The notes under the pieces were generated by a model, which saw only the letters and a program-made list of their open reading frames with translations, searched no databases and had not been told where the DNA came from. This document shows positions 2,476 through 33,129 of a stretch of DNA of 64,000 nt, piece after piece (position 1 is the stretch's first letter; every line of letters starts with the position of its first letter). The stretch is from Amphiscolops sp. MND2022. Lineage: Eukaryota. The DNA lies in assembly GCA_964187785.1 (NCBI GenBank), contig OZ076409.1:55120001-55184000 (forward strand), read 5' to 3'. The position numbers were made by a program, and so were the translations under genes.

Positions 2476-3447
2476 GTCACGGTTGTGGATGCTCTTGCAC
2501 CCAGTCGCCTGAATCAAGGCTCTTTATGCAACCCGGGAACCACCGCCACCGAGGCTCAAAAATTGATAAGAATCGCGAATTAATAGACAATGGATACATT
2601 TTTCAGCCAGTGGCCTTGGAAGTACAGGGTTCTTTAGGCGAGAGCAGTGAAATTTTCATCACGCGTCTCTGTAAAATGCTCTGTCGTTCGCACGACGATC
2701 AACGATCCGGCAGCTTTTTGAAGCAACGGATTTCAATGGCTCTTCTGATCGGCAATGCGGCCTGTGTTCTAGGAACTGTGAGCAACAGAGATGCGTTCGA
2801 ATAATTTTATTACACATAGCCTAATTTTTTTGACATTTATATCAAAGCAGCTTTCAAAAAAATTCCACCGGTCGACTGAATAGTGGCTGGTTTGAGTAGT
2901 TTTTTGGTTGTTTTTTTTGTTAATGGTCTACTGGGATAGTGGCTGGTATGGGGTTCCCTTCTTTCGTTGCAGACGGGTGGCTGTAAATAGGTCGAATTTT
3001 TCTGGTCGAAAGGACAGAGGTCGAACCTTTTGATCGAATTGCAGGGATCGAATGAAATGCGGTCGAATATCATCGTATTTGTTGTATGGCTCATTCATCG
3101 CTTCGCTCCCTTCGCCAAGTAGCAACATTGAGGCATGGCCATATGGCACGTCGCTCCGCTTCGCTTCGCTCCTGTATTCAGGGCACTAGGGGTATGTGAA
3201 CATATCTGACTACGTTAAAAAAATTTCGATCCGAGTTGCTTCGATCCCATTCAAAAATTTGGTATGTCGACCTGAGGACTAACTTTGATTTTCGATTCCG
3301 TTCCTTCGACCTACGTCCGCCCACCCGTTGCAGACCACGGGTGTGTGTCTTCTGCCCCCAACATGATGATACACATGGCACTTAATTGATGACGAAGATC
3401 CATGATATCTGATAGAGAAAAAAAAACAAAAAAAGAAAAAAGAAAAC
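2476..3447 (+). mobile_element. 5'-truncated CRE-like (restriction-like endonuclease) non-LTR retrotransposon with 3' UTR and A-rich tail
   Basis: Translation across one frameshift reads VTVVDALAPSRLNQGSLCNPGTTATEA..IDKNRELIDNGYIFQPVALEVQGSLG...FLKQRISMALLIGNAACVLGTV, the C-terminal REL-endonuclease pattern of CRE-type elements. Stop at 2802-2804; A-rich tail at ~3418-3447. Confidence 0.75.
2975..3326. mobile_element. MITE (GGGTGG...CCACCC termini, 9-bp TSD; Mutator-like)
   Basis: TSD GTTGCAGAC at 2966-2974 and 3327-3335. A second copy lies at 17057-17971. Confidence 0.88.
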
Positions 3448-4048
3448 AATTTCTCAAAAACTGTTCATACGAATCGAACGAAATTTTTTACAGTCATTCA
3501 ACACCGTATTAGAGTCCTATATGTGCAGTGGCACCAAAATTGTACAGCTGGGATGTGAGAAACATTGCCTAAATTAGCCCAAAAATGGCCAAAAAACAGT
3601 CATTTTTCGATTCTCGCAAAAACTGTCCATACGATTCAAACGAAATTTTCTACAGACATTTTCTACACCGGAACATGGTCCTATATGTGCAATTTTAATA
3701 AATTCGTATGACTGGGGATGGAGCGAGTCAGAAGGAAAAAGACCTAAGCCGACTCCTTTACCGCATATGCGGCTCTGGTTTTTTACTTCAATTGACAATT
3801 CAGAAAAAGTGTTCCAAATGACTTCAAAGTTGTTTGTGGCCGTTTTTAGTCGGCGTTTTTCTTGTGAAAAAAGACCGACTATTACAGAGGCTAGTTTTTT
3901 TTCGTCAGCCTACAATCTCGCTCTGATTCGGCCACTTTTTTCACAATCGAAACTACTACCATAAGGCGAAGTCCGGTCAGCTGAAGTTAGTGCAAAAGGG
4001 TCCCCCCTTTCATTTTTTACTTTTTTTAACGTAACCTACAAAACCGGA

Positions 4049-4487
4049 TGTAAAATTCTTGGGGTTTTCCGGTTTTTAAATCTCTTTTGCTTTAGGTTTC
4101 TTCAGAGCGGGGCGTGAGGAAGGCTTTACAGAAAAGATTTTATTGTCGATGTTTTATAGTCAACTATTCAATAGAAGCCCAAAAATTCTTGTCCTCAAAT
4201 TTTTGTCATCAATGTTTTATTTTCTTCACTTTATTGTTTCCTGTCATGCGGAAATTAACCAAAATATTTTTTATCAAAAACTGCCCATGCGTGTATTTAG
4301 AGGGTGGGTCATAATATATTTTTATTGCTTTTTTTATTGTTCGTGAAATTACGATTTGCTCTCCGAGGGGTTGTTTTATTAAGATTAAATATTCATAGCT
4401 CCAATTGAGGGTCAAAATAATTAGTGAGGGTTTATATTGATTAGCTTCACAAAGTTTAATACCTTCTAATATTCAAAGAATATTACA
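4049..4487 (-). repeat. 3' LTR (439 bp)
   Basis: TGTAAAATTCTT...AAGAATATTACA imperfect terminal inverted repeat. Matches the interrupted LTR at 16273-18214 with about 19 substitutions by manual count. Confidence 0.95.
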
Positions 4488-4516
4488 CTACCCGACTTTG
4501 ATTCTTTCACTCGCCG
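4488..4516 (-). promoter_or_regulatory. Polypurine-tract-like sequence next to the 3' LTR
   Basis: Minus strand reads GGCGAGTGAAAGAATCAAAGTCGGGTAG immediately before the LTR TGTAAT. Confidence 0.55.
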
Positions 4517-4566
4517 ATTTAAAAAGTTCATCAAAACGTCGAGAAAGTTAGTAGTTTTCTTTCCTT

Positions 4567-6826
4567 TCAAATTTGACCTGTTCGTAGTTGTCTATTGAGT
4601 TGTGAGTAGATTGGGGCATCGGGCTCAGGGTTTCGTGTTTCTTTTAGTTGAGATTCCGGAATCAGCAAACTGTTGTTCCTCCACGGAAATTTTTCGTCGT
4701 TTTCCAATCCTTCCATCCTTCCAGATAATGATCTTCCACCATCATTATCGGTTTCAGTGACACCTTTTGGTTGTCCAGTTTATGGAAGAATGGTAGAAAT
4801 TTTGGTAGTCTCTTGTATCTGTGTAGTGCATACGTAACACCCAGGTGGAGTGCTGTACTAACAAAGAATACTACAAAGCCAATCGCAAGGTGACTTTTCC
4901 ATGACAGATAATTGTTGAACTGTTTCTCCAGGGACGGCTTTAGAGCTGTAAGTTTCTGAGCAATTGGCTGTGCAATATAATTCAAGTCTGAACGGTATGA
5001 ATTATCCGGTTGGGATTGTAGTTCCAATTTCATTGAGCTCAGGAGTTGAATATTCGCTTCCACTCGTGTGTTGTAATGGGGAAGCTGGTCCACTGTTGGA
5101 ATAAGGCTGAACAGTCTAGCCATTGGTTCCGGTAGTGTTACATTGAGTTTCAGTGGTGGAACTTTCATGCAAGTGCTAAGGTCAGATCTGATTCTAACGT
5201 TGGGGCCGATCAATTGTTTACCACAGCGTAGACTCACCAGGCATATCTGACAACCATCTATCGTTGTAGATCCTGCTGTGGTTGTTGCATTCATGTAGGA
5301 TTCACGAAACTTGAAGTTGGATGAGGTTGAGGTTATGAGCCATATTCCATAACCTAGGTTCGTTGCTTTCTCTTTTAGGGGGAGTGTCACAGCTTCGGTG
5401 TCGCAATCTTCAATTGCGTCCATAACATTTCCAAAATAGAGTACTGCCAAGCATGACGCATCTGATGTTTCAGCTGCCATGGTTTCGTGACAAATCTTGT
5501 TTTTGTTGGAGCCGATGCACTTTCCCAGTTGATCACGTGTTACCAATGCGGTTTCTCTTAGGTCTTCAGATATTGCAATATACTCCGTTTCCACAGTCCA
5601 CTGGATTGCATACGCTGTTTCCAGTTGTGGCATGGGGACCACTATTGCTTTGTAGACTGTGAAAACTGTTTGGCGGGATGCCAGTGATTAGACATTGTCA
5701 TCAGCAAGCCATCGTCTAATGTTAGGACGTCTAAGAGCAGTCGCGCTTCATAATACGCCAGAAGCTCGTCCAAGGGAATAGCCAAAGTTAGTCTGTCGCG
5801 GGATTGTAGTTGTTCTGTGGCCACCTGCTGTAGAATAATTTCCAGAGATTCTTTCGGTAACAAGGACATCGGAACATATTGCGTGAGTAAGGAAATTATT
5901 GCATTCATGATGTTCATTTGGAAGGCATACAGTGCTGCTCTGTAGGACTTTACATTACTGTAAATCAAAGATAAGAGTGATAAGATGGTGTCAAAGTTGA
6001 AGTTCACTTGCTGTCGTGTATAGAGCAGTTGATCACAATTTCTCATCTCGTGGATATTTTGCTGAAAGGTGTTGAACTGTTTCTCAATTGCTCTCCAGTT
6101 TTGGTTTTGGGTCCCAATGATTTGTCTTTGGATGCCATGTAACATCTCTAGTTCCTTTGATACTCGTAAAAATTTAGTATCCGTTGAGTTTGCCAGCTGT
6201 TGGATATTTTCGCCCGAAGATATCGCGTATTCTCCCAGTTTTTCAATATTCCTTGCGTTCTGTTTTGCTTTTTCCTGACATGAGCCGATAATACCCATAA
6301 TTCCACAATCTCCAGAGCCAAACATTATGCCACCTCCGAATAAACCGATTGCACCTACCGCTGCTGCTGTTAACGGGAGAGCTCGTTTTTTCCGTGTCCT
6401 TTTGTTTTCTTGTGTACCCTTTAGGAAAGATGCCACGTCACCCTTGATTTTAAGCAGGTCGTTTTGTGCACATGAAATTTCCTTTTGTGTTTCCTTGAGG
6501 AGCCAGTCCATTTTGAAATCTACTTCACTTGTATTTGTGAAGTTGAGATAGCAGAAGTAAGTTGGGGTTTGCCACATATTTTGGAGTGACTGTGCTATTT
6601 GGTCAACATTCGAAATAAGGGTCACTTCAAAGCGTGGGAAAGGGACCAAAAATTGGACATTGATAAATTTTTTTACCAGGAGGATTTTGGTTTCTTCATT
6701 AAAGAAAATGCCCTTGTCCAAGCTGCCTTGACGACTGATACCCTGCGCTATGTGAATGAACAGAATTAAGGAAAGCATTTTGGGCAGAGGTCTAGGCCTC
6801 TCAATCGTAGGGTGTTGTACTAACAT
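4567..6826 (-). pseudogene. env: env: class I viral fusion glycoprotein (F-type architecture), two frameshifts
   Basis: Signal peptide MLSLILFIHIAQG (ATG 6778); furin site RTRKKR followed by fusion peptide ALPLTAAAVGAIGLFGGGIMFG (~6400-6320); heptad region; Cys-rich ectodomain; TM segment LAIGFVVFFVSTALHLGVTYAL. One frameshift at ~5685. An 8-bp duplication (GGAAGGAT, ~4707-4722) shifts the tail, whose restored frame ends ...PIYSQLNRQLRTGQI* at 4567. Confidence 0.88.
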
Positions 6827-6828
6827 TA

Positions 6829-7164
6829 TTAGGGTAGCTCAATCGCCATGTAGTCCAAAAGGTCAAGGAGTTGGTCTTTCATCTGCTGTTGCCCTTTCAT
6901 AGTATTTCTTAGTGTCTGGAGTAGGTAGAAGAGATCCTCAAACTCTGGTGTTTCTTCGTCAATGTCCATGATACTGAAGGTGCTAGTGTTTTCTGTTGTC
7001 GCTTGAATAAAAAGGGGTGCACAACATCCACATTGTTGAGTTTGAATGGTATGGATTAGGATTGGATTTAGCTGTCGCGCCGGAGTCCATTTGAAAGGTG
7101 TCGGGAAAGTGATTTTCATGGGCACTAGTGTAACTCTCACTGTTAGGCCTGGTGATGTAGACAT
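6829..7164 (-). CDS. Orphan 111-aa accessory ORF of the LTR element, directly upstream of env
   Basis: ATG-initiated, uninterrupted and on the element strand. Its stop runs TAA-TAATG into the first env-frame ATG (6826). No recognisable domain. Confidence 0.5.
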   Translation of the reverse strand: MSTSPGLTVRVTLVPMKITFPTPFKWTPARQLNPILIHTIQTQQCGCCAPLFIQATTENTSTFSIMDIDEETPEFEDLFYLLQTLRNTMKGQQQMKDQLLDLLDYMAIELP

Positions 7165-8034
7165 TTTGGGTTATTTACTGTGAGTCAAAGTTGTCATTTC
7201 ATATATGTAGGTAAGGACTCTTTGGAATTTGTTGAGTGTTCAGAATGTTGAATGTTTTGGGTTGAATTTCAAGTAAATTTCAGATAGAATGGGGTTGTTG
7301 ATACCCAATAAAGAATCAATAAATTTTCAGCAGTCTTGTCGGCGTCTTGGTTATTAAATTCAAGCAAATAATTTCAGCAACCACGGAAAAATTTTATTAA
7401 ATAGACGTTATTTTATTATTTGTCACTGTTCGACCGGAATTTCAATAATCTGAACTCATTAGAATGTACTCGCCCGGAAATTTTCAATTTCCATTTTAAT
7501 TGAATTGTTTTGTTGGCCCAAGCTTGAATGGCGTCCCTTTGTTTACTGTTGTTTTATTACCAGACTATCTGCCAAAATGTTGAACTCTGCCAAAATCTGA
7601 ACTTTGCCAAAATGTTGTTCGAGTTCTTTCAGAGCATAAGCATTACCACATAACTTTGTCAAAGTTGCACCAGCTTTTGTGTTGTCCTGGTGGCACTACA
7701 GCTTTCGAAGGTGGGCGTCCAGTCAGTTTTGTACCCAACCGGGATCCGCGTTGTTCCTTAGACGGAAAGACTCCTCAGAAGGGCGGATCAGCCAGTCATT
7801 TTGATGATGACTCCCTCCAGTGTTTGTTTGTGCCCTGGTTGCTTGCCCTGATATTCATAGGGGTAACTTTTCTGTTTTGCCTCGAAAGACTCTGCAACCG
7901 AGATTAACTGGTTTACCTTACTAGATTGAACTTTTTGGATATAGTTAGTTTGCCTTAGTTTGGTTCAATTCTGGTCCCTAAAGCAAGAAACGTATGAAGT
8001 ATGGACTTGAAGGTTCCTTTTTTCCATATTTCTG

Positions 8035-8853
8035 ATGGAGAAATTTAATTTACTCTTGGAACTATGTCAGGGTCAATGCAAGGAAGTTCCACCTGTATCT
8101 GCTGCTGAGGCTGCAAAGTTCGAAAACATTAGTATTGTACGTGGTGTCACATGTTATTATAAAGTTCCGCTGTTACAGCAGTTGTCCGTTGAATGAACCG
8201 ATTTGGCAGTTCTTAAAGAGTCTTTCACCAATTGGGGTGAGGAGAAGCAAAATGTTGAGTTCTCTAGTACTAGTCTGTTAACAGCTTTAATGCCAACGAA
8301 GGATGTGAATGATATTAGCAAATGGTTTCACAGCGCCGTTGTACCCATTGAAAGAGTTTATGAGCCTGTTCTCCTGGTAGCGACTGGTAATTGCTTGACC
8401 GTCTTTCATGTCGATAATAGCCCGCCTACCGAAATTGTGGCTTCTTTATTACGCGGACGTAAATTATGGATATTCGCCAGTCATGGGTCAAAATCAGCAG
8501 CCCGGTTGGTCAAAAGAAAAGAAGAGACAGAATTTCAGCAATTTATTGAAGATCTTATGTTTCATCGTTTCCAAGATCTTTTATTTTGTGTGCAGGAACC
8601 TCGTGATACAGTGTGTTTTCCCGCCAGAACAGTGCATTTTGTTTTGAGTGTGACAGCAGGAAATGAATGGAATTGTTTATTAGGTCATAATATTAGTCAC
8701 AGAGAGGAGGTAGCTACCGCTATGGAAGTGAAAGCTTACAATCGTTGTAGTGGAATTGCTTCTCGTATAGTGCAAGGAAAAACGACAAAGCGGTCTGGTG
8801 TTACAAAGACGCGTTTTACCAATCGTCGAAGAACACAGAACTCTTCAAAATGA
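8035..8853 (+). pseudogene. JmjC-domain (Fe(II)/2-oxoglutarate cupin oxygenase, demethylase/hydroxylase-like) ORF, antisense within the LTR element
   Basis: Motifs LTVFHVD (His 8407-8409, Asp 8413-8415), LLRGRKLWIF (Lys 8461-8463) and CVQEPRDTVCFPARTVHFVLS (His 8635-8637) match the JmjC core T-x-F-H-x-D / G-x-K-x-W / C-x-Q-x-P-G-x-T...P-x-x-x-x-H-x-V. The frame is open from ATG 8035 apart from one TGA at 8194-8196. The C-terminus is basic. Confidence 0.8.
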
Positions 8854-8944
8854 TGGTTAGTCTATTTTAGGAACAAGTTTTTCGAAATCCTTTTATGCAT
8901 ATTTTTTTATGCTATCGCACAGACTGTTTTTTCAAAACCCAGTG

Positions 8945-9690
8945 TGTGTCAGTAGCTGCCGTAAGATGTTTAAGCACAGTTTTTTTAAACAGGTAAGGTC
9001 TTTTTAGAAGGCCTTTTTAGCGTTTTGGGCATTCTAGCCCTTCCGCTATCACCTTGTCGTGTAGTGCTCATGTAACGTGGTCCATTTGGGGGTATTTCGC
9101 GTGGCTGGCCAATTGCACTTAGCCAGTCGCAGTGACAAAATCGGAGTTGTCCGCTAATGTAGGGTAAGGTCGTTTTTGTTTAACATGTATTTTTTTTTGG
9201 TTTTTTGATGGATGAGCGCATCCGCTACCACCCTATGGTGTAGTTCTCATGGAGCACAATCCGGGGAAGGACAATATGCACTGATTTTTTCTTCCACTTA
9301 GCCAGTCGCAGTGGCAAAATTGTCGTTTTTGTGGAAACTTACTGAGGTCGAAAAAAATTGTAACTGGGAGGATGAAGTTTTTCTTATATAATTTTGCTTT
9401 TGCGCGCTTTTTCTATCACCCTATCGTGTAGTACACGTTTAGGGGTATCTGTTGAGGTATTTTCCGTGTCGGAATCTTGTCTCTTTTTCTCAGTCGCAGT
9501 CGCAAACTGTCAATTTTTATCATAAGGTCAGATAGGACTTTTTTTCTAATAGGGTATTTATGGATCAGCAATGCTTTTTGAAGGTACAATAGATACCCTA
9601 TCTTGTAGATGAAATTCTAAGGTGTCCATCAGTGTGTTTTTTGTATGGTTAACATGTCACTTTTTTATGTTCGCAGTGTCAAAATGTGGT
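8945..9690. repeat. Degenerate tandem array, period ~178-188 bp, four units plus a partial one
   Basis: Box A CTAYCACCYTRTSGTGTAG at 9046, 9225, 9413 and degenerate ~9592; box B CAGTCGCAGT..CAAA at 9124, 9303, 9491 and ~9668; T(A/G)AGGTC at 8995, 9165, 9343, 9523. Confidence 0.75.
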
Positions 9691-9917
9691 CAATGCCAAA
9701 TGTCGTATGTCAAGATAGTCGATTCTCTGCTCATTTTTCGAAAAGTGTCTTGTCTAAAGACATGTCCTTGAAGTTTTGCTGCAGAAATTTTTCAATCCAT
9801 GGGTTTTTTGCAGGTTGTGGAAGTGGAGGAACATAGAGTTTTCACGGTTTTCAAGGCTAAATTCAGTTGGTTGGTTAATGTTAACTTACGGGTGTCTGGT
9901 ATGGGAAGGTTGGTCCG

Positions 9918-10365
9918 TCATTGGGCGTAGGGTGCTCTGTGAGGAAATACACAAACGGTTATCGTCAAATTCGTGTGTTGGAAGACTTCTATCAAGAGGT
10001 TGCGTACTTGTTGCCATGGGAGTTTGTCTCTTCCACATCCAAGTTTGGGTAATCGGATTTTATCTACTCCATACCGTTGAGCATGGTCACGCATCAGTAG
10101 AAGGCTTTAACGCAGTGATGCAATTGAAGGCTTGTGGAAAAATTTTCGTTTCGTCACCAAGTTGTATATCCATTGTCGGGAATACTTGTCATAGAATGCA
10201 AAAACTGAACCAGGAGCAAGGTTCTTCGATGATTGTGTTTTTATTCGGGGTTATAGCCTGTCAAACCGGTCGGCTATACCTATACCCATTGCAAAGTCCG
10301 AAGACACGCAGTGTGCCATACTAGAGGACGAACAGAAGATGTTGTCATAGACTATGTTGACATTG
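9918..10365 (-). pseudogene. TARG1/OARD1 (Poa1p-like) macrodomain, ADP-ribose glycohydrolase-like, downstream of integrase
   Basis: Manual translation: VNIVYDNIFCSSSSMAHCVSSDFAMGIGIADRFDRL*PRIK...WIYNLVTKRKFFHKPSIASLR*SLLLMRDHAQRYGVDKIRLPKLGCGRDKLPWQQVRNLLIEVFQHTNLTITVCV. This carries the AHC-x-S-x-D-x-x-MG-x-GIA, L-(I/V)-TK and P-x-(I/L)-GCG-x-D-x-L-x-W motifs. Internal stops at 10251-10253 and 10107-10109. Confidence 0.88.
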
Positions 10366-11086
10366 TTTCTTGTCTGACATATTTCATTGATGCCTGGGCG
10401 TGATCTTTTTCCATTGGATCCTTCTTGTTGAGATCCAGGTCTTTGGACAAATTGCGTTTGCTGGCGTTCTAATCTGCGGTTTTGAGTAGGTCAATAAAGT
10501 TACGTGCTTCTTTGATTTCTCCTTGTGATGTCCGTTTCATGGGGTTTGAGGTTTTCAGTTGTCTTCCCACAGCTTCAATCAGTCTAAAGTTTGGTTGAGG
10601 TTGTGTGGCTATTCTTTCTGATCTGCGCAGGGGTTGTATTGTTTCAGGGTTTTCATCCGAACTGTCGGAAGTTTCTGGTATGTCTGCGGTCAGGTTGACT
10701 GGGGGTGCTAGTCGTATACTCGTATGGTCCGGTTCTACTATGGTGTGGTTTTCATTCGCGGTATTGGGGTTTCTCGCTGGTGGTATAGGTAGTGGTAGGT
10801 GTTGTTGGGCCTGATTGCTTTTTCCAAAGGAAATTGAAACTCTTACTGGGCTATCAAATGTTGTCGGTTGAACAGACTCAACAGGTGTGTCATCTTGTAG
10901 TAATGATGGGTAACCTCTGTCGAAGTAATCTGTGTCTCCTCTGTTATGTCCCAGTTCTAAAATTTGCAGGGCCTATTTCGGGAATGTCTTCAACTTGGTA
11001 TTGTGGTGTAATAGGTCTGATCCTGATTCTATGCACAATCTGTGTATAGTTTGTTCCAATTTTGCGAATAAGATAATTAGAGTCTG

Positions 11087-11833
11087 TCAATACTTTTCCC
11101 CTCCATAAAGTGCATGCCATTTTTGTATTAATTTGGAGCTGAAGGTAGATTGTTCTGTCAGTTTAGGGTTTAGTAGGAGGCAAAACTGGTGTTGTTGTAA
11201 TGGGTTTGCACGTGCTTTCTGATCATAATACCTGCGGTATCGTGCGAAAGACTTTACGAGACTCTCTTTTGTTTCGGAGAATTTCTTCAACATTTCATCT
11301 CGTAAAGATTCCACAAAGTCGTAATTGAAAGCTGCCTTTCGGATACATGTGCTGTAGAATCTGAGATCCAACGGTTTCATTGGTTCTCTGCCGTAGAAGA
11401 GTACTGTTGGTGCGCATCCAATAGAAGTATGGTATGATGTATTGTGGATGAAAGTCACCAAAGGTACGTACCGATGCCAGTTTGTTAACGTATCATTACT
11501 GTTTAGTTTGAGGATTCTTGTGAGTGCTGCGTGTGATCGTTCAAGTGCTCCAATTGTCTGTGGGTGCTTAAGAGAGGGATGTGTAATTTTGTTTTCCAAG
11601 AGCTTTGTAAGTTCACTAAAAAGTTCTGAGACAAATTGTGTTCCAAGGTCCGATATTATTTCTTTTGGTATATAGCTGTGATTGAACATAATTGAGGCCA
11701 ATGCTGCAGCTACTGATGGCGCACTTATTGTGGTCAAGGGCACAGCAAAAAGGTATTTGGAAAAGACAACAATTGCTGTGAGCACATATTTATACGGAGA
11801 TGAGGGAAATGCTCCTTGAATATCGATCTGCAT
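11087..11833 (-). pseudogene. pol: pol: integrase catalytic core
   Basis: MQIDIQG...IISDLGTQF...HPQTIGALERSH (D,D35E pattern). A frameshifted C-terminal extension continues below 11087. Confidence 0.92.
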
Positions 11834-11887
11834 TATGTCTCCGGGGAAGGATGTTTTTGAAGATAGTTCGCTTAGCGGAGGTTTGAG

Positions 11888-13255
11888 TCAAGTTGGTTGG
11901 ACAAGTTTGAGTTGTAAACAGGTTGAGCAGTTTCTGATGTGGCTTGCAATTTGTTCTATGTCATTCGGGCAGTAAAAGCGCCTACGAAACTCGGCGATTG
12001 TTCTTGTTATTCCCAAATGTCCTCCTGTGGGTGAATTATGTATTCTATAGAGGATTTCTTTTAGCATGTGTTTGGGTACACATACTTGTTTATGAAGGAT
12101 AGTACCATCATGGTCGTAATAGTTCCGTTTAAGGATTCCATTGTCTATGATTAATCGCGGGAGTTGTTTCCGATATTTCTGTTCTTCTCCTGATGAATAA
12201 ATATTATGTGGTGGTTCTGTACCTTCTGTAAGCCAGGTTGTCACTTTCGAGAGTAGGGCGTCATTTTGTTGTTCCCTTTCTAGAGTTGCCACCGATGTCT
12301 CAAGTTCTGGATAATTGTCCATCGGGTTTTGTAATTGTAGTGCGTTGATCGGGACTGCTTGTTTGTATCTGGTCAATTGGATTTCTTCATTTTGGGTTGC
12401 CAGGGCTTTTTGGTGTTGTGAGGCATTCTCAAAGTTTCCAGATTGTTTCAATGTTATTAATGTGTTCATATCAACCACTTGAAGTAAGTCATCGGGGAAT
12501 TCACCAGAGAAAAGTTCATTAATTGTATTGTCTGGTAATTTAGCTCGAATATCAATCTCTACTTCGCGTACCGGAATACGGTCTGTAAGTTTGAATTCTA
12601 CTGTTTCGTTCGAATTTGGTTGCAGGCGAGATAAAAAATCCGCTGCTGCGTTTGCTTTCCCGGGAATATGAGCGACTACTATGTTGAATGTGGTTACTCT
12701 GTCGACATAGCTCCAAAGGGATGGAGGAATTGTCTTTGCTTGACAGAAGCGTGTGAGGCTTTTGTTATCTGTCAGTATCAGTACAGGTTTTTCGCTACCC
12801 CATATGAAGTGTGAGAAGGTTTCTAGAGCAAAACAAAATGACAGGAATTCTTTGCAGTAGATTGGCATTTTCAACTGAGCTGTCTTGAAGACTTTCGATC
12901 CAAATGAGACTGGTGCGTATGACTTTACATCTTCACCTTTCTCATTTTTGACATAGTCTTCAATCATGAGTACGAATCCACTCGAATGGTAACTTGCGTC
13001 ACAAAAAATTACATAATGTAGTCCTGGTTTTGCCAATCGTAGTGTTTGCGTTGCAGTTGTTTTGAGTTTCTCCTTCAAGGTTTCAAACGAATCCAGTATT
13101 TCTTCTGTCACTTTGAATACCACATTTTTCCGCAGCAGTTTATAGAATGGTAAGATATGCTCATTCAAATTGGGGTTGAAGTTTCTGAAAAACTGAAGGA
13201 AACCTATCAGTCTTTTTACTTGTTTAACAGATTTTGGTATATCCAGTGTTTTCAA
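11888..13255 (-). pseudogene. pol: pol: RT connection, RNase H and integrase HHCC zinc-binding domain
   Basis: VIFCDAS, ILTDNKSL, HIPGKANAAADFLSR; HNSPTGGHLG...CSTC. Confidence 0.92.
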
Positions 13256-13263
13256 GATATTCT

Positions 13264-15060
13264 CTATTTTGTTTCTGGTTTTAGGCCTTCTTTGGTAATC
13301 ACATTTCCAAGAAAACTAACTTGTTCAGAACCAAATACACACTTTTTTGGAGATAATTTGAGTCCTGAGCGTCTGAGGCCTTGAAATATTTGTCTGAGGT
13401 ATGGTTCCAAATAGTTTCTCACAAAAGCACTGAATCCGGTTACAGATCGGTTCAATCCTCTCGCTAATCGCTGATAGGCTAGGGTTCGTGAAGCAAAGTT
13501 GAATGCCAGTAGTTGTACCGAGAGTGGGTCTGCCATTTGTACACAATGGTAGGCCTGAGAGCAATCAAATTTGCAAAACAGTTTCTTTCCGGCAAAATGA
13601 GCAGTTGTGTCTGCCCTTGTTGAGAATGGAAAGTTATTGTTGTGATAATCATGAAGGAGTAAATGGTTGATACGGCGTAGGTCTACTAGGATTCGAAGTT
13701 CTCCATTAGTTTTACGGTGTGCGAAAATTGGACTGCTATATTTTGAATGGTTGAGGCTGGTGATAATTCCAAAATATTGTAAGAGTGCAAGTTCAACCTG
13801 TAGTTCCTCTCGTAAGTGTATTGGTGTCGGTGGGCTTTGCGTGTAGACAGGTTTATCATGTTCAGGAGTCAATTTCATTGTTATTTCCGAATTATAACTG
13901 ACGTCAAATCTATGTTTGGCAAATATATCCGAGAATTCAATCAGTAGCTCTTCTAGTTTTTGTTTTTGATGTGGATTCAGTACTGAGTCTTTCCATTGGA
14001 ATCTTTGGAGGAATATTTCACGGTAGTTAGCGTCCATTTGTGGGTCTATATTTTCTAACTCTTGGAGCTTCAATAGTTCCTCATAAATCCTTTTTTCCAC
14101 TCCTTGAAGATTTTCCGTATTTCGACAAGTTTCTGGGGTCTGGAACCAAAAACTTTTGTAGTCTGGTTGAGGTCTAGGAGGTTGCGATTCTGAGTTAAAA
14201 GTTTGATCTATTACCAATTGGTTTATTCCAGTGACTAAATCATCTGGGTTTTTGAATTTTGCTAAAGTCAGTAGTTGAGGGTCAATTGGTGTTAAGGTTT
14301 CAGCTTGTTGGGGTGAGAGAAATTTAAAGAGAGCAATGTCTGAATTTCGAGGTATCGTGACTTCATTTTCTTGAAGGTTCAATGCAGAAATGAATAGGTG
14401 ACCTGAAGAGTCAACTTTCGAAAGGGATGAGATTATGCACAAACCCGTTTTTTCCTCGAAACTAGTTTTCGGTTCGACTATCCCGCAAAGCTCCGATACT
14501 TTATTCTTGGAGAGTAACACGCATTTTAAAATTGTTTGTTGGTTCGGGGCAATCGTTGTTTTCTCGACCGTTCTAATTGAGTACTGGGGTTTTGTAGTTT
14601 TCTCAAGTTTGTCCATTTCATTCAATTGTAGTGTCAGGTCTGGAAGTTTCATCAAGTTTTCTTTTGGGTATAGTTCTACGGAGTTATTTTTGAAGAAAGG
14701 GTTTCCCAAAATAATACTACTTGTATTGGGCAGAACAAGGAATGTTTCCTTAAAGGAATGATTGGCAATGGAAAATTGGAGTTCTATTTGGCCACGCACA
14801 GGTATAAGTTGTCCGGAAGCTAATTTCACTTTACTGACCTGTTTTGGTGTAGTGAGTTGCGAGATGTTTCCACCCACAAGAAGATTTCAAGTCTTCATAG
14901 TCATGTTCATTGATGGCATTTGCACAGGCTCCAGTGTCAATTAGAGCTTTTCTCGTTTCTTTAGAGAAAAATTTTAGTGGTACATAGGATAGAATATCAC
15001 CCTGAAGGGATATGCATGCAGTAATTTGGTGGTCCTCTCTTTGTGTCGTTTCTTCCGTTT
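13264..15060 (-). pseudogene. pol: pol: aspartic protease and reverse transcriptase (frameshifted; catalytic DD block deleted)
   Basis: ALIDTGACANAI protease motif (~14930). RT motifs YSSPIF, LRILVDLRRIN, KFDCSQAYHC, RLARGL and GLKLSPKKC. No (Y/F)xDD between YLEP and YLRQIF. Confidence 0.92.
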
Positions 15061-15081
15061 TGTCTTCATACTGGCGTGGCT

Positions 15082-16242
15082 CTACTCGTTTTTTGGTGCT
15101 GTTCGATATGGAATTTGCTGGTTTCTCTGTGCTGGTTGACGTTGAATACAATCCTTGGCGTAGTGGTTTGGGTATCCACAGTTGTAACATACATTTTTCG
15201 AGTAACTGGTCTCTTCAATATGTCCATCATCAGATGACTGTTGTAGCTGTGGGTTGTTGTTACCATAGTTGTTTTGGTTACCTCTGTTATTGTTGTATTT
15301 GCCATAGCACCCTCTGTTGTTGTTATATCTACCTTTTCCTCTGTTGTTTCCTCGATTGAAGTTTCCTCTTCCTCTGTATCCTCTCGAGTTATTATATCTG
15401 TTGTTACCTCTGTAGTTAGAGTTTCTGTTCTGATTATTGTCGTTGTTGTAATTCTGGTTACCCATGTTTTGACAGCTGAATGTGTTGATTCTGTTCGACA
15501 TTTCAGTTTGGTGTTGTTTGATTTCATCTTGTTGTTGAGTTAATTTAGTTAATGCACTAACCAAGTTTTCTGAGAGCGTTGTACTCACTTCGTTGAATGC
15601 GTCTCTGGACCAATCGTCACTCGGGCACAGCTCAAAGAACACCATTTGCCTTCGAGCCACAGTGCACAAGTCTTGAACTGTTGCTGCTTCATTTTGATCC
15701 AAAAGTTTTCTTTTAATGAAGTTTGGCATTGAGTTTGTGAAGATTTCTTTTATCCTTCTGTTTCTTTCATTTGTCGCATTGTCCAAAACAGTCTGATTCG
15801 CTGCTTCTGTTGCCGCAACTCTGGCAATTCCAGCTTGGTCATTTGGTGGATTAGCTGGTGGAATAGGTGCAAACACTGGGTCAGGATAGGCTTGTGTTGC
15901 TTTGATTTGCACTTGTACGAGGAAGTCTTCTGGGCTACCAGTTTTGTGATCAAATTTCAAGTTATGTAGTTGTAATTCTCGAAGATTTGGGTTACAGTAG
16001 TGGTTGCGCAGAGCTGTAATGGCTGCATCGAAGTTATCTCTTGTAGCTTGTGGTAATGTTCTAAAGAATTGTAGGGCTTGGTCTAGTAGATGTAGTTGCA
16101 GGAATTGTGGTCGGTTTGCCGCTGGGATGTTCCCCACATTGATCAAGCTTCTGAGTAGACTCTCAAAATCTGGCCAATTTTCATCTGGTTTTCCGCGGAA
16201 TGGGTTGAGTAAGATGTGTGGTTGAGGGTTTGCAGCTGCCCT
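15082..16242 (-). pseudogene. gag: gag with CCHC zinc knuckle and an Asn/Arg/Gly-rich region
   Basis: The frame is open from 16242 (AGG GCA GCT GCA..., probably a mutated ATG) through PFRGKPDENWPDFE. It contains CYNCGYPNHYAKDC and overlaps the start of pol. Confidence 0.88.
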
Positions 16243-16254
16243 TGTCTTTTCCTC

Positions 16255-16272
16255 ACTTCCTCCTTGTCACCA
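16255..16272 (-). promoter_or_regulatory. Primer-binding site
   Basis: Minus strand TGGTGACAAGGAGG... starts immediately after the CA end of the 5' LTR; TGG is complementary to the tRNA CCA end. The priming tRNA was not identified. Confidence 0.7.
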
Positions 16273-16398
16273 TGTAAAATTCTTGGGGTTTTCCAGTTTT
16301 TAAATCTCTTTTGCTTTAGGTTTCTTCAGAGCGGGGCGTGAGGAAGGCTTTACAGAAAAGATTTTAGTGTCGATGTTTTACAATCAATTATTCAATAG

Positions 16399-16968
16399 GG
16401 GAACAAGACGTTTCGGCACAAGACGTTTCGGCAACAAAATGGCGGAAGACGTTTCGGCAACAAAATGTTGCCGAAACGTCTTTCACCTGCTGTGAAGACG
16501 TTTCGGCACCAAAGACGTTTCGGCAACAAGAAGAATAATCTGTAGTTTTCTTTAGTATGAAACGTGCCCCATATATGTCCCCATTTCCTCTAGTGCCCCG
16601 CGGCCCCTTGGGGCCGCTTATATTCCCATCTTGCTAAGCGAGGTCGAACAGGAGCAAAGACCTAGCGGAAACGGAGATCGCGAAGCGATCGTAGTGGGAG
16701 CTGGTCTTTGCGACGGTGAGGGCGAGCGTGCATACACCGAATATGCCCCCACATTAGAAGGGGAAAGTCCTGAAAATTTTGCAAGACATTCACGAAAAGT
16801 AAAAATTTATTCTTAAGAAGTCAAAAAAAGTCACAAAATGTTGCCGAAACGTCTTTCACCTGCTGTGAAGACGTTTCGGCACCAAAGACGTTTCGGCAAC
16901 AAAAAGTTGCCGAAACGTCTTCCGCCATCTTGTTGCCGAAACGTCTTGTGCCGAAACGTCCGGAACCC
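16399..16968. mobile_element. Foldback-type MITE with arms of AAGACGTTTCGGCA(A)C repeats, 8-bp TSD
   Basis: TSD TTCAATAG (16391-16398, 16969-16976); GGG...CCC termini; long modular inverted arms. Confidence 0.88.
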
Positions 16969-17056
16969 TTCAATAGAAGCCCAAAATTTCTTGTCCTCAA
17001 ATTATTGTCATCAATGTTTTATTTTCTTCACTTTATTGTTTCCTGTCATGCGGGAA

Positions 17057-17971
17057 GGGTGGCTGTAAATAGGTCGAATTTTTGGTAAATGGTCACTTGG
17101 CTTAATGCCATTTGGCTTAAAGTCATTTGGCTTAATACAATTGGTCACTTGGCTTAATTTTTTTAAGCTAAGTGTCTCGGGAATTGGTCACTTGGCTTAA
17201 AGTCATTTGACTTAAAACCACTTAGTTGAAAACACGTGACAGATTTTGTCGAATTTATCTTTATAACGGAATCAGCGTATCAATATAACATGTCATATCA
17301 AGTACCCCTCGTATATGTCCCCATTTCCTCTAGTGCCCTGCGGCCCCTTGGGGCCGCTTGTATTCCCATCTTGCTAAGCGAGGTCGAACAGGAGCAAAGA
17401 CCTAGCGGGAACGAAGATCGCGAAGCGATCGTAGTGTGAGCTGGTCTTTGCGACGGTGAGGGCGAGCGTGCATACACCGCATATGCCGCGCATTATGATA
17501 TTTCCGGGAGTTGACATATTTTTTCCTTGAGTTAGAACGGAGTTGGCTTAATTTTGTGGTCACTTGGCTTAAAATTTTTAAGCCAAATGACTCGACGAAA
17601 AAATTAAGCCAAATGGTATTAAGCCAAGTGACTGGTAACCGAATTTTTCTGGTCGAAAGGACAGAGGTCGAACCTTTTGATCGAATTGCAGAGATCGAAT
17701 GGAATGCGGTCGAATTTTATCGTATTTGTTGCATGGCTCGGTCGCTTCGCTCCCTTCGCCAAGTAGCAACATTGAGGCATGGCCATATGGCACGTCGCTC
17801 CGCTTCGCTTCGCTCCTGCATTCAGGGCACTAGGGGTATGTGAACATATCTGACTACGTTATAAAAATTTCGATCCGAGTTGTTTCGATCCCATTCAAAA
17901 ACTTTGGTATGTCGACCTGAGGACTAACTCTGATTTTCGATCCCGTTCCTTCGTTCTACTTCCGCCCACCC
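17057..17971. mobile_element. MITE, second copy of 2975-3326, containing a nested MITE
   Basis: 9-bp TSD ATGCGG(G/A)AA (17048-17056, 17972-17980). The body matches 2975-3326. Confidence 0.88.
17084..17640. mobile_element. Foldback-type MITE with arms of GTCA(C/T)TTGGCTTAA repeats, 8-bp TSD
   Basis: TSD GAATTTTT (17076-17083, 17641-17648). Termini GGTAAATGGTCACTTGGCTTAA and TTAAGCCAAGTGACTGGTAACC. Confidence 0.88.
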
Positions 17972-19131
17972 ATGCGGAAATTGACCAATATATTTTTTAT
18001 TAAAAACTGCCCATGCGTGTATTTAGCGTGTGGGTCATAATATATTTTTTATTGCTTTTTTTATTGTTCGTGAAATTACGATTTGCATTCCGGGGGGTTG
18101 TTTTATTAGGATTAAATATTCATAGCTCCAATTGGGGGTCAAATTAATTAGTGAGGGTATATATTGATTAGCTTCACAAAGTTTAATACCTTCTAATATT
18201 CAAAGAATATTACACCGGACGAGACTAAAAGGTCCCCCTTTTGATTTTTTTCAGCACTATGCGACTTTTTTTCCGAAATTTCTTCAATGTCTCAAAAGAG
18301 TCCCCTTTCCAGTTTTGTGATATTTTGCAACAGAATATATGTCAATAAATCCCAAAGGGTCCCTCTTTTCTACATTTTTCGGCACTATGCGGCATTTTCT
18401 CTAAGGAAAAAAATCAAAAATTTCAAGTTTTCTTTCAAACAAAAGTCTTGCGCTTTTTGAGCCTTAGATATAGCTCCGACTTTAGACGTTCATGTCTTGT
18501 TTGTGATTCGACAAGATTGAAAAAACTTGCGTGAAGCCATTATATTAGTGTCGTTTTTATATAAATTGCCTAGTTTTTGTTTACTGTTTTTTTTCGTTTT
18601 TCACACGAAGTCCAACGAAATGATGGAGATTATGAGCTGATGTGTTTCTAAACTTTTGCATGTGACCTATGTTCATCGTTGTCACGGCTGCCGAGTTCCT
18701 AATAATAATGATTATATAAGTTGTTCCTTATCGGGTGCCTTACGTGGTTTTATGTTACCAAGTGGTTGGCACACACCCGTGGGCTCCAAATGAGGGGAAA
18801 CAATGAGCGAGAATGCTTATCAGAAGACTTATTACCCATGCGGGCCCTTATTTCAGTAAACCGGCAGAAATGAACGAAATTTTTAAATTAGCAACCCATC
18901 ATTGTCCAAAAGAGCAACCGCCTGAAAACTGAAAAGTTTACATCCTCGTTTCTGTGAAAATCACTTCTTGCAGCTCCGACCCGCGATGTCAGTAATTTTT
19001 TGTCAGTGTTGCATGTATGTGTAGCAGGCAACTACCTGATTAGTCGTGGTTTTTGTCTCACTCAGTTAATCCCATGCTTTTGATTTATACTTCGAAGAGA
19101 TTAGAAATGAGTTCCATAGCAGGAATATGAC

Positions 19132-21242
19132 CAGGGGCTGGCAATTAAAAATTGATATTCCAATTAATTGCAATAATTGATAAACAATTATTTAATTGCT
19201 ATTCTTTTCAATTACCAATAATTGATTGCGTGCTTTCAATAATTGCAATAATTGTTCTTCAGTATATTTCAGGTCAGCATGTCGAAAAATCAAGCTGAGA
19301 TCTGTAAAACATTCTTTAAATTACTCGAAAGTGAAAATGATACTTAGCTTTGCAAATGTGGCCGAAAATTGAAGCAGCGAAAAGGTACAGGTTGGAGCAA
19401 TTTGTAGGCTCATATAAAAGTGCAACATCAGCAGAAAAGTGAAACAGTTGCAAGTGAAACTCAGGCAACATACTAATTTGCGTCCTGTTCTTTTCAATGC
19501 AACAAGGTGGTCGAGTGTCTTTGATATGATATGTCGATATCGTGAATTTAAATCAATAATACAAGAAGAGATGCAATCTGAAGCCAATATAGTTGACCTA
19601 TTACTTTCTCCCAAAGAAAACTCTGAAGTGGACTCCTTATTTTCAGAACTAAAAGATTTGAACTCCGTGAGTGTTGCGCTGCAAAAGGAAAAACTAGATA
19701 TGTCCACTGCCCGATTGCTCATTGACGAAACAGCTAAAAAGTTTCCAAAACTCGATCCAGAGAATAAGTATCTCGGAAAAACGCCCGTATTGTGAAGAAT
19801 AAGCATTTCGAAACAGGAATTGTAAAAATTCTTGATGAGAAAGAAAACGAGCTCAGCTTGACCGAAATTTTACAATGTAAAAGATTGAAAAAACATGAAG
19901 ATGACGAAGAAAACCAAACTCCGGTAATAGTAGAGACAGGGGTTTGCAATAATTAATTGGTCTTCCAATAATTGCAATAATAATTGCCAATATTATTGAT
20001 TGGGCACTTTTCCAATAACCAATTAATTGGAAATCGTTTTGCCAATTATTGGTTTCATTGGTTTTCAAATTGAAAGCTCTTTTTCAGGTTTGAAATGAGT
20101 TCGAACAGAGATTTTAAAACCATATGCAAGAAATATTTCACACCAATGGAAAATGACATTTTCAAATGCAAATGTGGCAAAATTTTGAAGCAAAAAAAAG
20201 GTACCGGTTGGTCTAATTTGATGGTGCATATTCGAACACAACACGAAACAACTCCATCCGGTCCCTAAAATACTTTGGACTTTATGCAATGTAAGAAGTC
20301 TCAAACCATCCATGATTGGATCGAATGGATATGCATGGAGCTTCGACCTTTTAGCTTTGTGGAAAGCGAGTATGTGAAGAAAAATGTCAAGCTTGAAGCA
20401 ATTTCAAAGAATACTTTGCAAAAGTATATGCATCTCCTCACCAAGAAAGTGGAACAAGAAATCATCAAAGCAATGCCAGAAAAAATTGCTTTGATAGTTG
20501 ATGGATGGACATCTGGTAGCACCCACTACTTGGGCGTAATGGCATCGTTCTGCGACATGGATCAAATTGTTGAAGTTCCGTTGTTAGCTTTTTCGCCGCT
20601 CATTTGAGTGTGCATGCCGCTGAGTGAGCTGTTTTATAACGCGTCTTTTCGATGATTTTTGTAATTTAATCACTCTGAAACAGCTGTTTTTTAAAGTGCC
20701 CAATTATTGCACTTATTGCAATAATTTATTGGTCAAGGGTCCAATAATCAATTAATTGGTTTTCAGAAGTTTTGGGACCAATAATTATTGCAATTATTTA
20801 TTGCAAAGCCCTGAGTAGAGAGTGATTTCGCTGAAGAAATTCTGCAAAAGAGGCAGAAAAAGGGGGATGAATCGAAATATCTTAACTGTCGCTTCTTGTT
20901 CCCGACATCCAATATTTTGGAGAGGTTTTTTAGTGCTGCAGGCTATGCTCTGAATGATTTGAGACAGAATATAACCCCTGAACATTTGGAACAACAGCTG
21001 TTCCTTCGGGCGAACAAAAAATACTGGACCGTTAAAACGGTCAATTCTGTTCTTTCTGATTGATATCGTTTCGTAATTGTTTTTTTTTTCGATTGATTTT
21101 TGTTTTCATTTCTTACTGTTTCATGTGACTCAATTATTGCAATTATTGGTATCAATTATTGATTGGCAAGTATTTTCATCAATTATTAATTGAAACATTT
21201 TTTATCCCCAATTATTATCCAATTTTTAATTGCCAGGCCCTG
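19132..21242 (+). mobile_element. hAT DNA transposon, internally deleted (outer element)
   Basis: TIRs CAGGG(G/C)CTGGCAATTAAAAATTG; 8-bp TSD AATATGAC (19124-19131, 21243-21250). Remnants include a BED-like finger (CKCGRKLKQRKGTGWSNL..H), NATRWSSVFDMICRY and the C-terminal PTSNILERFFSAAG...LFLRAN dimerisation motif. Confidence 0.92.
19937..20813 (+). mobile_element. hAT DNA transposon deletion derivative nested in the outer hAT
   Basis: TIRs CAGGG(G/C)TTTGCAATAA; TSD AGTAGAGA (19929-19936, 20814-20821). Encodes a BED-like finger (CKCGKILKQKKGTGWSNLMVH) and the first catalytic block IALIVDGWTSGSTHYLGV. Confidence 0.92.
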
Positions 21243-30717: not shown

Positions 30718-31278
<561 letters not shown>

Positions 31279-31345
31279 TGAAACAGTTAATAAAGCGCTC
31301 AAAATAACTAAAATGAAACAGGATATGGAATTCTCTTTAACATGA

Positions 31346-31840
<495 letters not shown>

Positions 31841-32112
31841 TAGTTAGAAAATTATATGTTGAAACTTTTCGTGAATTTTCCTAGAATGGGCTTAAATGTC
31901 GTTTTCGTTCACCGTGGAGCTATATCAGTTGGTTCAAGCGTCGCGTACCGCTGAAGTTTTGTTACCTTCAAAAACAACCATACAGTTTTGAGCTTTCAGG
32001 TTGAAAATTTTCGAATTTTTTTCGCAAAGGATGACAAATAGAAATTCACACACGTGTCGCCTGATCAGTTTGCAAATATCTCTTTTAGATTCATTGTCAA
32101 AAACTGTCATAG

Positions 32113-32577
<465 letters not shown>

Positions 32578-33129
32578 TAACCCCTGAAATAATAAAAAAT
32601 ATTAAAATCCTGTTTTTTGAAGTGTTTAAACAATTTAGCTACAATTTTGGGCCGTTTGTTATTTACTCATCTAACTTAGCTACCAAGTTGATTTAATGTT
32701 TTCATCGTTTTCTTTTTAAGGCGTGAATGCAAAACTTCATTAAACATCACTTGGAATATCGTTTCTTGGTAAAGTGTCAAAAAATTGTTGTCCTTCATTC
32801 AAGTAACAAAGCTTATGGTCCAACATAGCTTATTTGAATGTTTTATATATTTTATTCGAGAATCAGCTTGTAATTGCAGCAAAGAATCGCATGTAAAGCT
32901 TTGCTGTTGCAAATTTTGTCAAATTTTTATTCCCTTTGAGCTGAAATGTATACTTGATGCATTTTTTTGGAAATTTGTTTGCAGTCGCAGTCTTGATACT
33001 GGGTCGCTTTTTCGTTGAAATCTGACTTTTTGAATCCTTGTGCGGTCTCTAATAAACTTTCCAAATTTTTCGAATCTTTGTTGGCTTCCCATCTAGCTCA
33101 CATTTGCTAGTTGTCCTATCTGATATTAA

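Follow-up and report, generated by a model that had tools for sequence, protein, structure and literature searches.

The env-carrying Ty3/Gypsy errantiviruses of invertebrates (PMC13524379) resemble the element analysed here in their LTR-gag-pol-env layout, in being multicopy and in the class-I-like anatomy of Env. Our element adds to this layout an antisense cassette, which includes a JmjC gene, and a macrodomain in Pol; the main text of that paper contains "JmjC" and "macro" 0 times. Comparable features occur on other retroelements. The extra ORFs of bdelloid retroelements (PMC5408684) likewise represent enzymatic cargo common to unrelated retroelement types, and plant Retand (PMC11963269) likewise has antisense ORFs and tandem arrays after pol; however, the cargo in these cases is an esterase, an exonuclease or TRP28, unlike the JmjC protein described here. 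Fish epsilon-like endogenous retroviruses (PMC4977317) already have macro-domain ORFs, so the presence of a macrodomain is not in itself new, although here it is of the TARG1 type and fused to the C-terminus of Pol.

JmjC genes have been described on other genomic parasites. JmjC-only, reader-less genes were found in giant-virus insertions of Amoebidium and proposed to oppose host chromatin silencing (PMC11244446), and JmjC genes are also present in wasp filamentous viruses (PMC11013392). Large DNA viruses are the carriers in both cases, and the Amoebidium genes resemble KDM4; the genes reported here, by contrast, are intronless, lie antisense on LTR retroelements and appear nearest to KDM7/KDM2 by profile. 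Other host chromatin machinery under selection on mobile DNA includes DNMTs captured by dinoflagellate and charophyte retrotransposons (PMC5890265), MBD and TET/JBP captures by transposons (cited in PMC11244446) and a viral TET in punuivirus (PMC13692296). Such proteins act on or read DNA methylation, whereas the fold seen here is that of a protein-lysine oxygenase. Our literature searches, which covered papers rather than Repbase, Dfam or GyDB, turned up no report of JmjC on an LTR retroelement, and the keyword "JmjC" gave 0 matches in the accessible text of PMC13524379, PMC3597677, PMC6431247 and PMC6338049.

An env-bearing Ty3/Gypsy provirus with an antisense cassette

The window is a 64,000-nucleotide stretch of the Amphiscolops sp. 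MND2022 genome (contig OZ076409.1, positions 55,120,001 to 55,184,000). It contains, at 4049..18214, a decayed env-bearing Ty3/Gypsy provirus on the minus strand, flanked by LTRs and by a 5-bp target site duplication (TSD) with identical copies at 4044..4048 and 18215..18219. The 3' LTR (4049..4487, minus strand) is 439 bp long; the 5' LTR (16273..18214, minus strand) has two nested insertions (16399-16968 and 17057-17970). Both have TG...CA ends, and they are 94.7-96.6% identical when compared in three pieces. A polypurine tract, purine-rich on the element strand, adjoins the 3' LTR (4488..4500, minus strand), and a TGG motif resembling a primer-binding site, assigned by motif rather than by a match to a tRNA, is in the expected position (16255..16272, minus strand).

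Along the minus strand, the order is gag, protease, reverse transcriptase, RNase H, integrase, macrodomain, array, plus-strand JmjC gene, plus-strand small transmembrane ORF, orphan ORF and env. Pfam identified gag with its CCHC zinc knuckle (zf-CCHC; 15082..16266, minus strand) and a broken region of RNase H, integrase (H2C2, rve) and integrase tail (10469..13315, minus strand); protease, with a DTG motif, and reverse transcriptase (13264..15214, minus strand; ORFs and Pfam) are also broken. The succession of protease, reverse transcriptase, RNase H and integrase downstream of gag, together with the LTR ends, TSD, primer-binding site and polypurine tract, is that of Ty3/Gypsy elements, as an earlier sequence-only reading had proposed. 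That reading had also called this copy dead, and we agree: env, protease/reverse transcriptase and RNase H/integrase are broken, and stops interrupt the macrodomain and the JmjC gene. Its gene order stands as well, except that the macrodomain is a domain of Pol and not a separate gene, and that a second antisense ORF (7528-7907) had been overlooked. Comparison with sister copies, whose architecture was inferred from search coordinates and 3.6-kb loci rather than from wide flanks, shows that the element belongs to a family of env-bearing, endogenous retrovirus-like Ty3/Gypsy elements in which an antisense accessory cassette, located between pol and env, can be exchanged.

The env-like gene (4662..6838, minus strand), recognized from ORFs and broken here, encodes a signal peptide, an R-x-K/R-R site, a hydrophobic fusion-peptide-like stretch and a C-terminal transmembrane segment; in sisters the frame is open over 754 aa. 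As in errantiviruses, this third sense ORF has the anatomy of a class I fusogen (signal, furin site, fusion peptide, transmembrane segment) in 7 homologs, 6 of which have the furin-like motif. Searches against Pfam and PDB gave no significant match, whether to F-type or gB-type glycoproteins or to any other family (best E 0.18, to HA2); thus, Env is class-I-fusogen-like by anatomy only. Adjacent to it is an orphan ORF of 111 aa (6829..7164, minus strand) that has no family match, is retained in sisters and shows a dN/dS of about 0.3 between diverged copies.

The first gene of the variable cassette is a small antisense Cys-rich ORF with a C-terminal transmembrane segment (7528..7907, plus strand). 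Frameshifted here and 124-126 aa long in sisters, it has a dN/dS of 0.34-0.47 between alleles, no family match and only ESM Atlas matches below threshold (0.77). For the alternative cargo, identity as an OTU deubiquitinase was considered on the basis of resemblance and rejected, as Pfam, PDB and homolog searches gave it no support.

The array of about 180-bp units noted earlier resolves into three degenerate units, each about 180-190 bp long (8970..9520, minus strand; cores at 9117, 9296 and 9484). The units are 56-62% identical (z 6.0-9.7 against shuffles), and the 26-nt core had 0 matches in 500 shuffles; a TRF run did not report the array. Its fold z is -2.7, and we rejected a known RNA family, as Rfam gave no match. 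The right-hand breakpoints of the cassette are located in the array cores.

The JmjC protein

The second antisense gene (8035..8853, plus strand) encodes a predicted JmjC-only Fe(II)/2OG oxygenase of about 270 aa with a basic C-terminal tail (13-15 K/R within the last 40 residues in alleles A-C). The window copy has a single premature stop at 8194-8196. The sequence-only reading of this gene as JmjC is borne out by a Pfam match (E 0.0018), by a match of the family profile to KDM7A (E 1.1e-9) and by an AlphaFold model with a pLDDT of 90.9. The Fe/2OG site is intact by sequence (H125, D127, H201 and K143): most of 43 JmjC rows retain the metal His and Asp/Glu, the distal His and the 2OG Lys, and across 51 sequences conservation reaches at least 90% for H125, K143 and H201. 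The Tyr that follows the HxD motif in KDM7, which has a role in 2OG binding, aligns with Ala, Ser or Cys.

By profile, the nearest solved relatives are KDM7A (1e-9) and PHF8 (4e-9), then JMJD6 (1e-4) and KDM2A (2e-4). The model has the double-stranded beta-helix JmjC fold (Foldseek E 1e-8), and VIA rows 1-14 are all PHF2, PHF8, KDM7 or KDM2 (Z 14.4-13.4), the best with Z 14.4 and an rmsd of 5.5 A over 229 aligned residues. The metal triad and the 2OG Thr/Lys are in register with these proteins; however, their sequence identity to solved JmjC proteins amounts to just 11-17%, and in these 270-300-aa proteins Pfam detected JmjC alone, with no PHD, CXXC or JHD domain. A single-sequence PDB search gave no match, and ESM Atlas returned only generic JmjC/cupin clusters (0.91-0.93). 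Thus, the protein appears nearest to KDM7/PHF8/KDM2 by profile without their reader domains, while its structure score ties with FIH and JMJD5, which are within 1 Z of the KDM7 group in VIA (Z 13.4 and 13.3). The modelled fold does not tell demethylases from hydroxylases.

The protein could be an active oxygenase on a non-histone substrate, like JMJD5, JMJD6, FIH or TYW5. It would then act by hydroxylation or demethylation on a tRNA, an element protein or a host factor for defence, splicing or translation, in favour of expression or frameshifting. This would suit the small JmjC-only architecture, the leading Foldseek matches (JMJD5 and TYW5), the tie in Z and the JMJD6 profile match; moreover, the wybutosine status of tRNA is linked to retroelement frameshifting in PMC2938197. 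We nevertheless consider it rather unlikely, because the sequence profile prefers KDM7/PHF8 by about 15 bits, and because other mobile elements of the same genome carry a clearly KDM2/7-like JmjC (E 3e-18), so that a KDM2/7-type source was available. The host KDM2/7 locus was recovered solely as a JHD exon; the JmjC tree therefore includes no cellular KDM7 JmjC sequence.

Retention and exchange of the JmjC gene

All 11 sister loci with a macrodomain match of at least 87% also have the JmjC gene, 1.5-1.7 kb away; the cargo is thus not a one-off capture of the window copy. Of the 12 copies, 8 have an open JmjC frame and 4 a broken one. The gene is retained also in the 5 copies that lost env and is therefore not tied to an infectious route.

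Four JmjC alleles are synonymously saturated (pS 0.74-0.83 versus pN 0.21-0.27; Fisher p <=1e-26), while the backbones around them are about 90% identical. Thus, the JmjC gene has not evolved neutrally: at the level of sequence, this pattern shows an old gene, long kept by the elements under purifying selection and exchanged via recombination. In other comparisons, dN/dS was 0.26 (L021/L022) and 0.31-0.60 (BEL copies). No opposite-strand ORF accounts for the constraint, with 8-19 stops per frame. Within alleles, changes are too few to reveal ongoing selection (for example, 0 synonymous versus 5 non-synonymous in the L008/L009 pair). In sisters representing each of the four alleles, an acceptor-like site is found 5-8 nt upstream of the JmjC ATG; overall, 9 of 22 start sites have one, against a background of 12.6% (start codons were hand-chosen).

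A neutral passenger or one-off capture, functionless for the element, would explain why recent copies decay (4/12 broken) and why JmjC is missing from most env-Gypsy families examined: all six others (L048-L053) do well without it. On the other hand, the saturated dS with low dN, the existence of four alleles and the spread over several superfamilies and two genomes make this reading scarcely credible, and the substitution data have largely refuted it already.

JmjC in other element families

The same JmjC family is present in other Gypsy families and in four BEL/Pao families, in one of which it is enclosed by both LTRs, as well as in a second genome, on a BEL/Pao element. The JmjC-only family is therefore common to Gypsy and BEL/Pao elements. 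Quick trees suggest repeated transfer between the two; however, AU tests reject neither Gypsy monophyly (p 0.115) nor BEL monophyly (p 0.149), and we therefore limit our claim to both superfamilies carrying the family. Copia was rejected as a carrier: in the one candidate (L028), JmjC is part of a BEL element adjoining a Copia gag. Viral contigs searched with A2 and L036 contained no relative.

In every LTR family examined the JmjC gene is antisense. Antisense genes of retroviruses can serve latency or copy-number control, and the gene here might be such a self-regulator rather than a counter-defence factor, limiting or timing element expression or binding methyl-lysine with little turnover. 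The uniform orientation and modest copy numbers (the JmjC family numbers only about 12 copies) are consistent with this. So is plant Retand, which has antisense ORFs together with tandem arrays in the corresponding region, for which a regulatory role is proposed (PMC11963269). We regard self-regulation as improbable, because the catalytic residues are conserved even among very divergent members and because the gene is found in unrelated superfamilies, as would suit a generic activity in trans.

The Pol macrodomain

The TARG1/OARD1-like macrodomain (9918..10490, minus strand) has two in-frame stops in this copy and, with these read as X, matched Pfam with E 0.0023. The earlier assignment to the TARG1 type is upheld by an open sister sequence, which matched human TARG1 with E 6e-25; a Lys and an Asp align with the catalytic residues of the human protein. 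In sisters, open frames of 1794 and 1795 aa fuse the domain into the Pol polyprotein, of which, by this reading of the frames, it is the C-terminal domain. It is common in the genome: all 150 scored candidates, of 960, matched.

The sequence-only reading had joined JmjC and the macrodomain into one counter-defence module. Both are present in 12/12 copies of the window family and also in L013, and ADP-ribosylation can feed retroelement silencing, as a SIRT6-KAP1 study indicates (PMC4695847). However, related env-Gypsy families show all four combinations, namely JmjC without the macrodomain (L021, L022 and L027), the macrodomain without JmjC (L048 and L051), neither (L049, L050, L052 and L053) and both. 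In addition, the stretches read at BEL JmjC loci contain no macro ORF, and the two genes are on opposite strands and of very different ages (macro pS 0.01-0.09). The joint module is thus unsupported, and co-dependence of the two domains is very unlikely. The TARG1-like domain may instead be an independent Pol-linked accessory, probably removing ADP-ribose near the replication or integration complex.

A possible role in escape from silencing

In animals, the silencing of retroelements relies mainly on repressive histone methylation; to our knowledge, suppressors of this layer encoded by the elements themselves have rarely been documented. The host genome contains Pre-SET (4 matches) and Piwi-domain genes. 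We propose, with about even confidence for and against, that the JmjC protein works in the nucleus as a demethylase-like enzyme by which the elements relax host silencing. It would probably be translated from a spliced antisense mRNA, apart from the genomic RNA, and enter the nucleus via its basic tail. There it would most likely remove repressive lysine methylation of the KDM7/PHF8 type (the substrates of these enzymes are H3K9me1/2 and H3K27me2), working in trans with no reader domain, and so might keep proviral LTRs transcribable. More tentatively, Gypsy, BEL/Pao and some DNA elements may share a pool of JmjC-only histone demethylases, which retroelements express from antisense cassettes that are exchanged as alleles would be, as part of an arms race against host H3K9/piRNA silencing. 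Related JmjC enzymes on unrelated jumping genes suggest a common route of escaping host silencing.

The JmjC protein offers a compact, well-folding, selected candidate enzyme in a natural allelic and cross-superfamily series, and it makes it possible to ask directly, by peptide assay, if a transposon is able to erase the marks that silence it. As a very divergent minimal JmjC family, it should also be useful to enzymology, and JmjC "gene expansions" in such genomes call for caution, as they may be transposon cargo. More broadly, these elements appear to be invertebrate errantiviruses with retrovirus-like complexity, which combine as many as four accessory functions with an antisense slot that recombines. 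If the proposed role is true, these genes would form the first family of histone demethylases encoded by retroelements, and complex invertebrate retroviruses would possess a slot in which accessory genes can be interchanged.

Structure of the provirus

The element lies on the minus strand of the window between LTRs with TG...CA ends (4049-4487 and 16273-18214), flanked by an identical 5-bp TSD; matched LTRs with a TSD had been noted in the sequence-only reading. It has a TGG primer site and a purine tract, and its LTRs are 94.7-96.6% identical, the 5' LTR being split by two insertions. These MITE-like insertions, 16399-16968 (which has terminal inverted arms) and 17057-17970, have a 176-bp segment in common; part of the second is found again at 2993-3325, and the right flank of the element (18214-18922) repeats 542-1258. 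Elsewhere on the plus strand are an ORF fragment (19418-19795) that we take to resemble the C-terminal region of a hAT transposase and a host gene with introns (30718-32580), presumably encoding an adenosylhomocysteinase, judging by its translation.

Pfam matches in this copy comprise gag (zf-CCHC), RT, RNase H, integrase, a macrodomain (E 0.0023, in a translation with X in place of two stops) and a plus-strand JmjC (E 0.0018). The JmjC gene (8035-8853) and a small transmembrane (TM) ORF (7528-7907) form an antisense cassette between pol and env. The copy is dead, as that reading had also recognized: gag-pol, macro, the TM ORF and env are all broken, and JmjC is interrupted by one stop. The array that the reading reported is borne out as real in shuffle tests (units at z 6.0-9.7 against 200 shuffles; core absent from 500 of 500) but is degenerate, its three units being 56-62% identical.

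Sister copies, the Pol macrodomain and env

Sister copies were sought in G000, the 1.07-Gb assembly whose contig C1 includes the window and whose BEL/Pao elements, env-bearing Gypsy elements and genes with introns point to an animal host. Among the 150 of 297 JmjC candidates that were scored, 118 matched, and 11 loci besides the window match its JmjC at 64-95%; among the 150 of 960 macro candidates scored, those that match at 87% or more lie at precisely these 11 loci. The cargo is thus hardly a one-off capture, as all 11 sister elements, which are bracketed by LTR and RT matches, have both JmjC and macro. Of the 12 copies, 8 have an open JmjC frame, the damage in the others being one stop each in two sisters and the window copy and a frameshift in one sister. 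The sister macrodomain sits inside open frames that reach 1794-1795 aa and is therefore a C-terminal domain of Pol; that of an open sister matches human TARG1 (E 6e-25), with Lys and Asp, which we take to be the catalytic residues of TARG1, aligned in register. Many TARG1-like macro matches in the assembly lie in open frames of ~835 aa, besides Pol frames of ~1845 aa, and the shorter frames probably represent another macro-bearing element family.

Env is present at 91% or more in 7 of the 12 copies; in the other five, the LTR is too near the cassette to leave space for it. The N-terminus of the env homologs is hydrophobic; an R-x-K/R-R site, present in 6 of 7, is followed by a hydrophobic stretch, and a TM segment lies at the C-terminus. 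Library searches gave no significant match for them. In four of the five env-less copies (L005, L006, L007, L009 and L012), the LTR lies ~430-460 bp from the orphan ORF, and two different JmjC alleles occur among them; a lineage without env has both spread and undergone recombination.

An exchangeable antisense cassette

Upstream of JmjC, sisters carry a second plus-strand ORF of 124-126 aa, Cys-rich and with a C-terminal TM segment. In 100-bp bins, the cassette flanks of sisters are mostly 80-100% identical to the window; from ~7600 to 9000-9200, identity is only 10-77% in six of the nine sisters compared, a drop by which we defined four alleles, A to D. Between alleles, JmjC is saturated at synonymous sites (pS 0.74-0.83; pN 0.21-0.27; p 1e-26 or smaller), and the macrodomain in the same elements has pS of 0.01-0.09; therefore, the cassette is far older than the backbones. 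With saturated pS and low pN, it is hardly credible that JmjC is neutral, and no long opposite-strand ORF was found that would account for the constraint. These comparisons indicate that the cassette was under purifying selection in the past and exchanged by recombination; comparisons within alleles are too shallow to reveal current selection. On the right, homology begins again at 9127 (alleles B and C) or 9303 (allele D), both within array cores (9117-9142 and 9296-9321), and we infer that these cores act as template-switch points. A pyrimidine-rich acceptor-like site lies 5-8 nt before the ATG in sisters of all four alleles; overall, such a site was found at 9 of 22 starts, chosen by hand, compared with 12.6% of 8872 background ATGs.

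The sequence-only reading had treated JmjC and macro as a joint module. JmjC is absent from all six intervals examined in other env-Gypsy families (L048-L053), and a Pol macrodomain is present in two and absent in four; in all six, a small TM ORF and a different conserved gene, apparently spliced, occupy the same antisense slot. JmjC and macro are therefore independent accessories, and the conserved feature is the antisense slot, not the pair; that the two form an obligate module is very improbable, since each occurs without the other among env-Gypsy families. The alternative slot gene, which in L050 contains two gaps resembling GT-AG introns on the antisense strand, encodes CxxC and conserved G-x-C motifs and matched nothing in Pfam or PDB.

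JmjC relatives in other elements and genomes

Related antisense JmjC ORFs also occur in two further env-Gypsy families, one lacking macro (L021, L022, L027) and one with it (L013), and in four BEL/Pao families (L031; L032/L023/L028; L033; L035). The Gypsy family of L013, L015 and L024 has an additional antisense hydrophobic ORF of 150-190 aa between JmjC and macro, for which Pfam gave no match. In L031 (C3:25071300-25080600), each LTR (at least 1.5 kb, 98% identical) holds an antisense JmjC ORF, which has 143 matches genome-wide, many as pairs ~7 kb apart. At L034 (C12:40279500-40286500), a family member neighbors a PIF1 helicase ORF (Pfam E 3e-9) as well as a further ORF, without a Pfam match, bearing what we take to be a tyrosine-recombinase-like motif; this locus, with ~5 similar matches, is likely a DNA element.

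A metagenome scan gave 37 pattern matches that reduced to nine loci, one a bacterial JmjC and eight from one other assembly. In L036 of that assembly, an open 281-aa antisense JmjC comes after a BEL RNase H-integrase; nothing in G000 is closer to this integrase than 65-70% over part of its length, and the BEL-JmjC arrangement therefore extends to a second genome. A 50%-cluster library contained 157 JmjC relatives, 82 of them with E of 1e-10 or lower, and the ten looked up are all unnamed or "hypothetical"; the family was not found in viral contigs. Gypsy and BEL members are intermixed in quick trees, and AU tests reject neither a Gypsy clade (p 0.115) nor a BEL clade (p 0.149). Two multicopy non-retro repeats, L046 (C1:6289500-6296000) and L047 (C1:26457500-26463500), with ~35 and at least 11 Pfam matches, combine a BRCT ORF and long tandem arrays with a JmjC that is clearly KDM2/KDM7-like (E 3e-18 to KDM2A).

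The JmjC enzyme and its possible role

The cassette protein is beyond doubt a JmjC oxygenase. Its fold, modeled from an alignment of 51 natural relatives, is predicted at pLDDT 90.9; His125, Lys143 and His201 are each at least 90% conserved in the 51 sequences, and most rows preserve Asp127 and Thr/Ser122. That the protein is a self-limiting or non-catalytic regulator we consider unlikely. Against solved structures, the family profile scored best with KDM7A (1.1e-9), PHF8, ceKDM7 and PHF2, then with JMJD6 (1e-4) and KDM2A (2e-4), although by domain content the cassette JmjC falls outside the KDM2/7 group. VIA-align likewise placed PHF2/PHF8/KDM7/KDM2 first (Z 14.4, rmsd 5.5, 229 aligned); FIH and JMJD5 followed less than 1 Z behind, and the top Foldseek matches were JMJD5 and TYW5. 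To a non-histone hydroxylase we give a lower probability than to the demethylase reading below.

The element family is real, its cargo has been selected and exchanged as alleles, the JmjC active site is intact, and the JmjC family is spread over superfamilies and two genomes. With moderate confidence, and arguing from sequence, we favor an antisense-made nuclear JmjC: a spliced antisense mRNA would let the protein be made separately from genomic RNA, the basic tail that ends most full-length members would carry it into the nucleus, and it would act in trans to strip repressive methylation from lysines. Pre-SET and Piwi-domain genes are present in the host genome; thus, the presumed target system exists.

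Published work describes env-bearing Gypsy elements as widespread (PMC13524379), macro ORFs in fish ERVs (PMC4977317), JmjC-only demethylase-like genes in Amoebidium giant-virus insertions (PMC11244446) and wasp filamentous viruses (PMC11013392), retrotransposons with DNMTs (PMC5890265), and precedents for cargo sharing and antisense ORFs (PMC5408684, PMC11963269). Searches of the openly accessible full-text literature turned up no case of JmjC on LTR retroelements. Capture of chromatin enzymes by genomic parasites is already known; its JmjC form described here is, as far as we searched, new for LTR retroelements and is directly testable.
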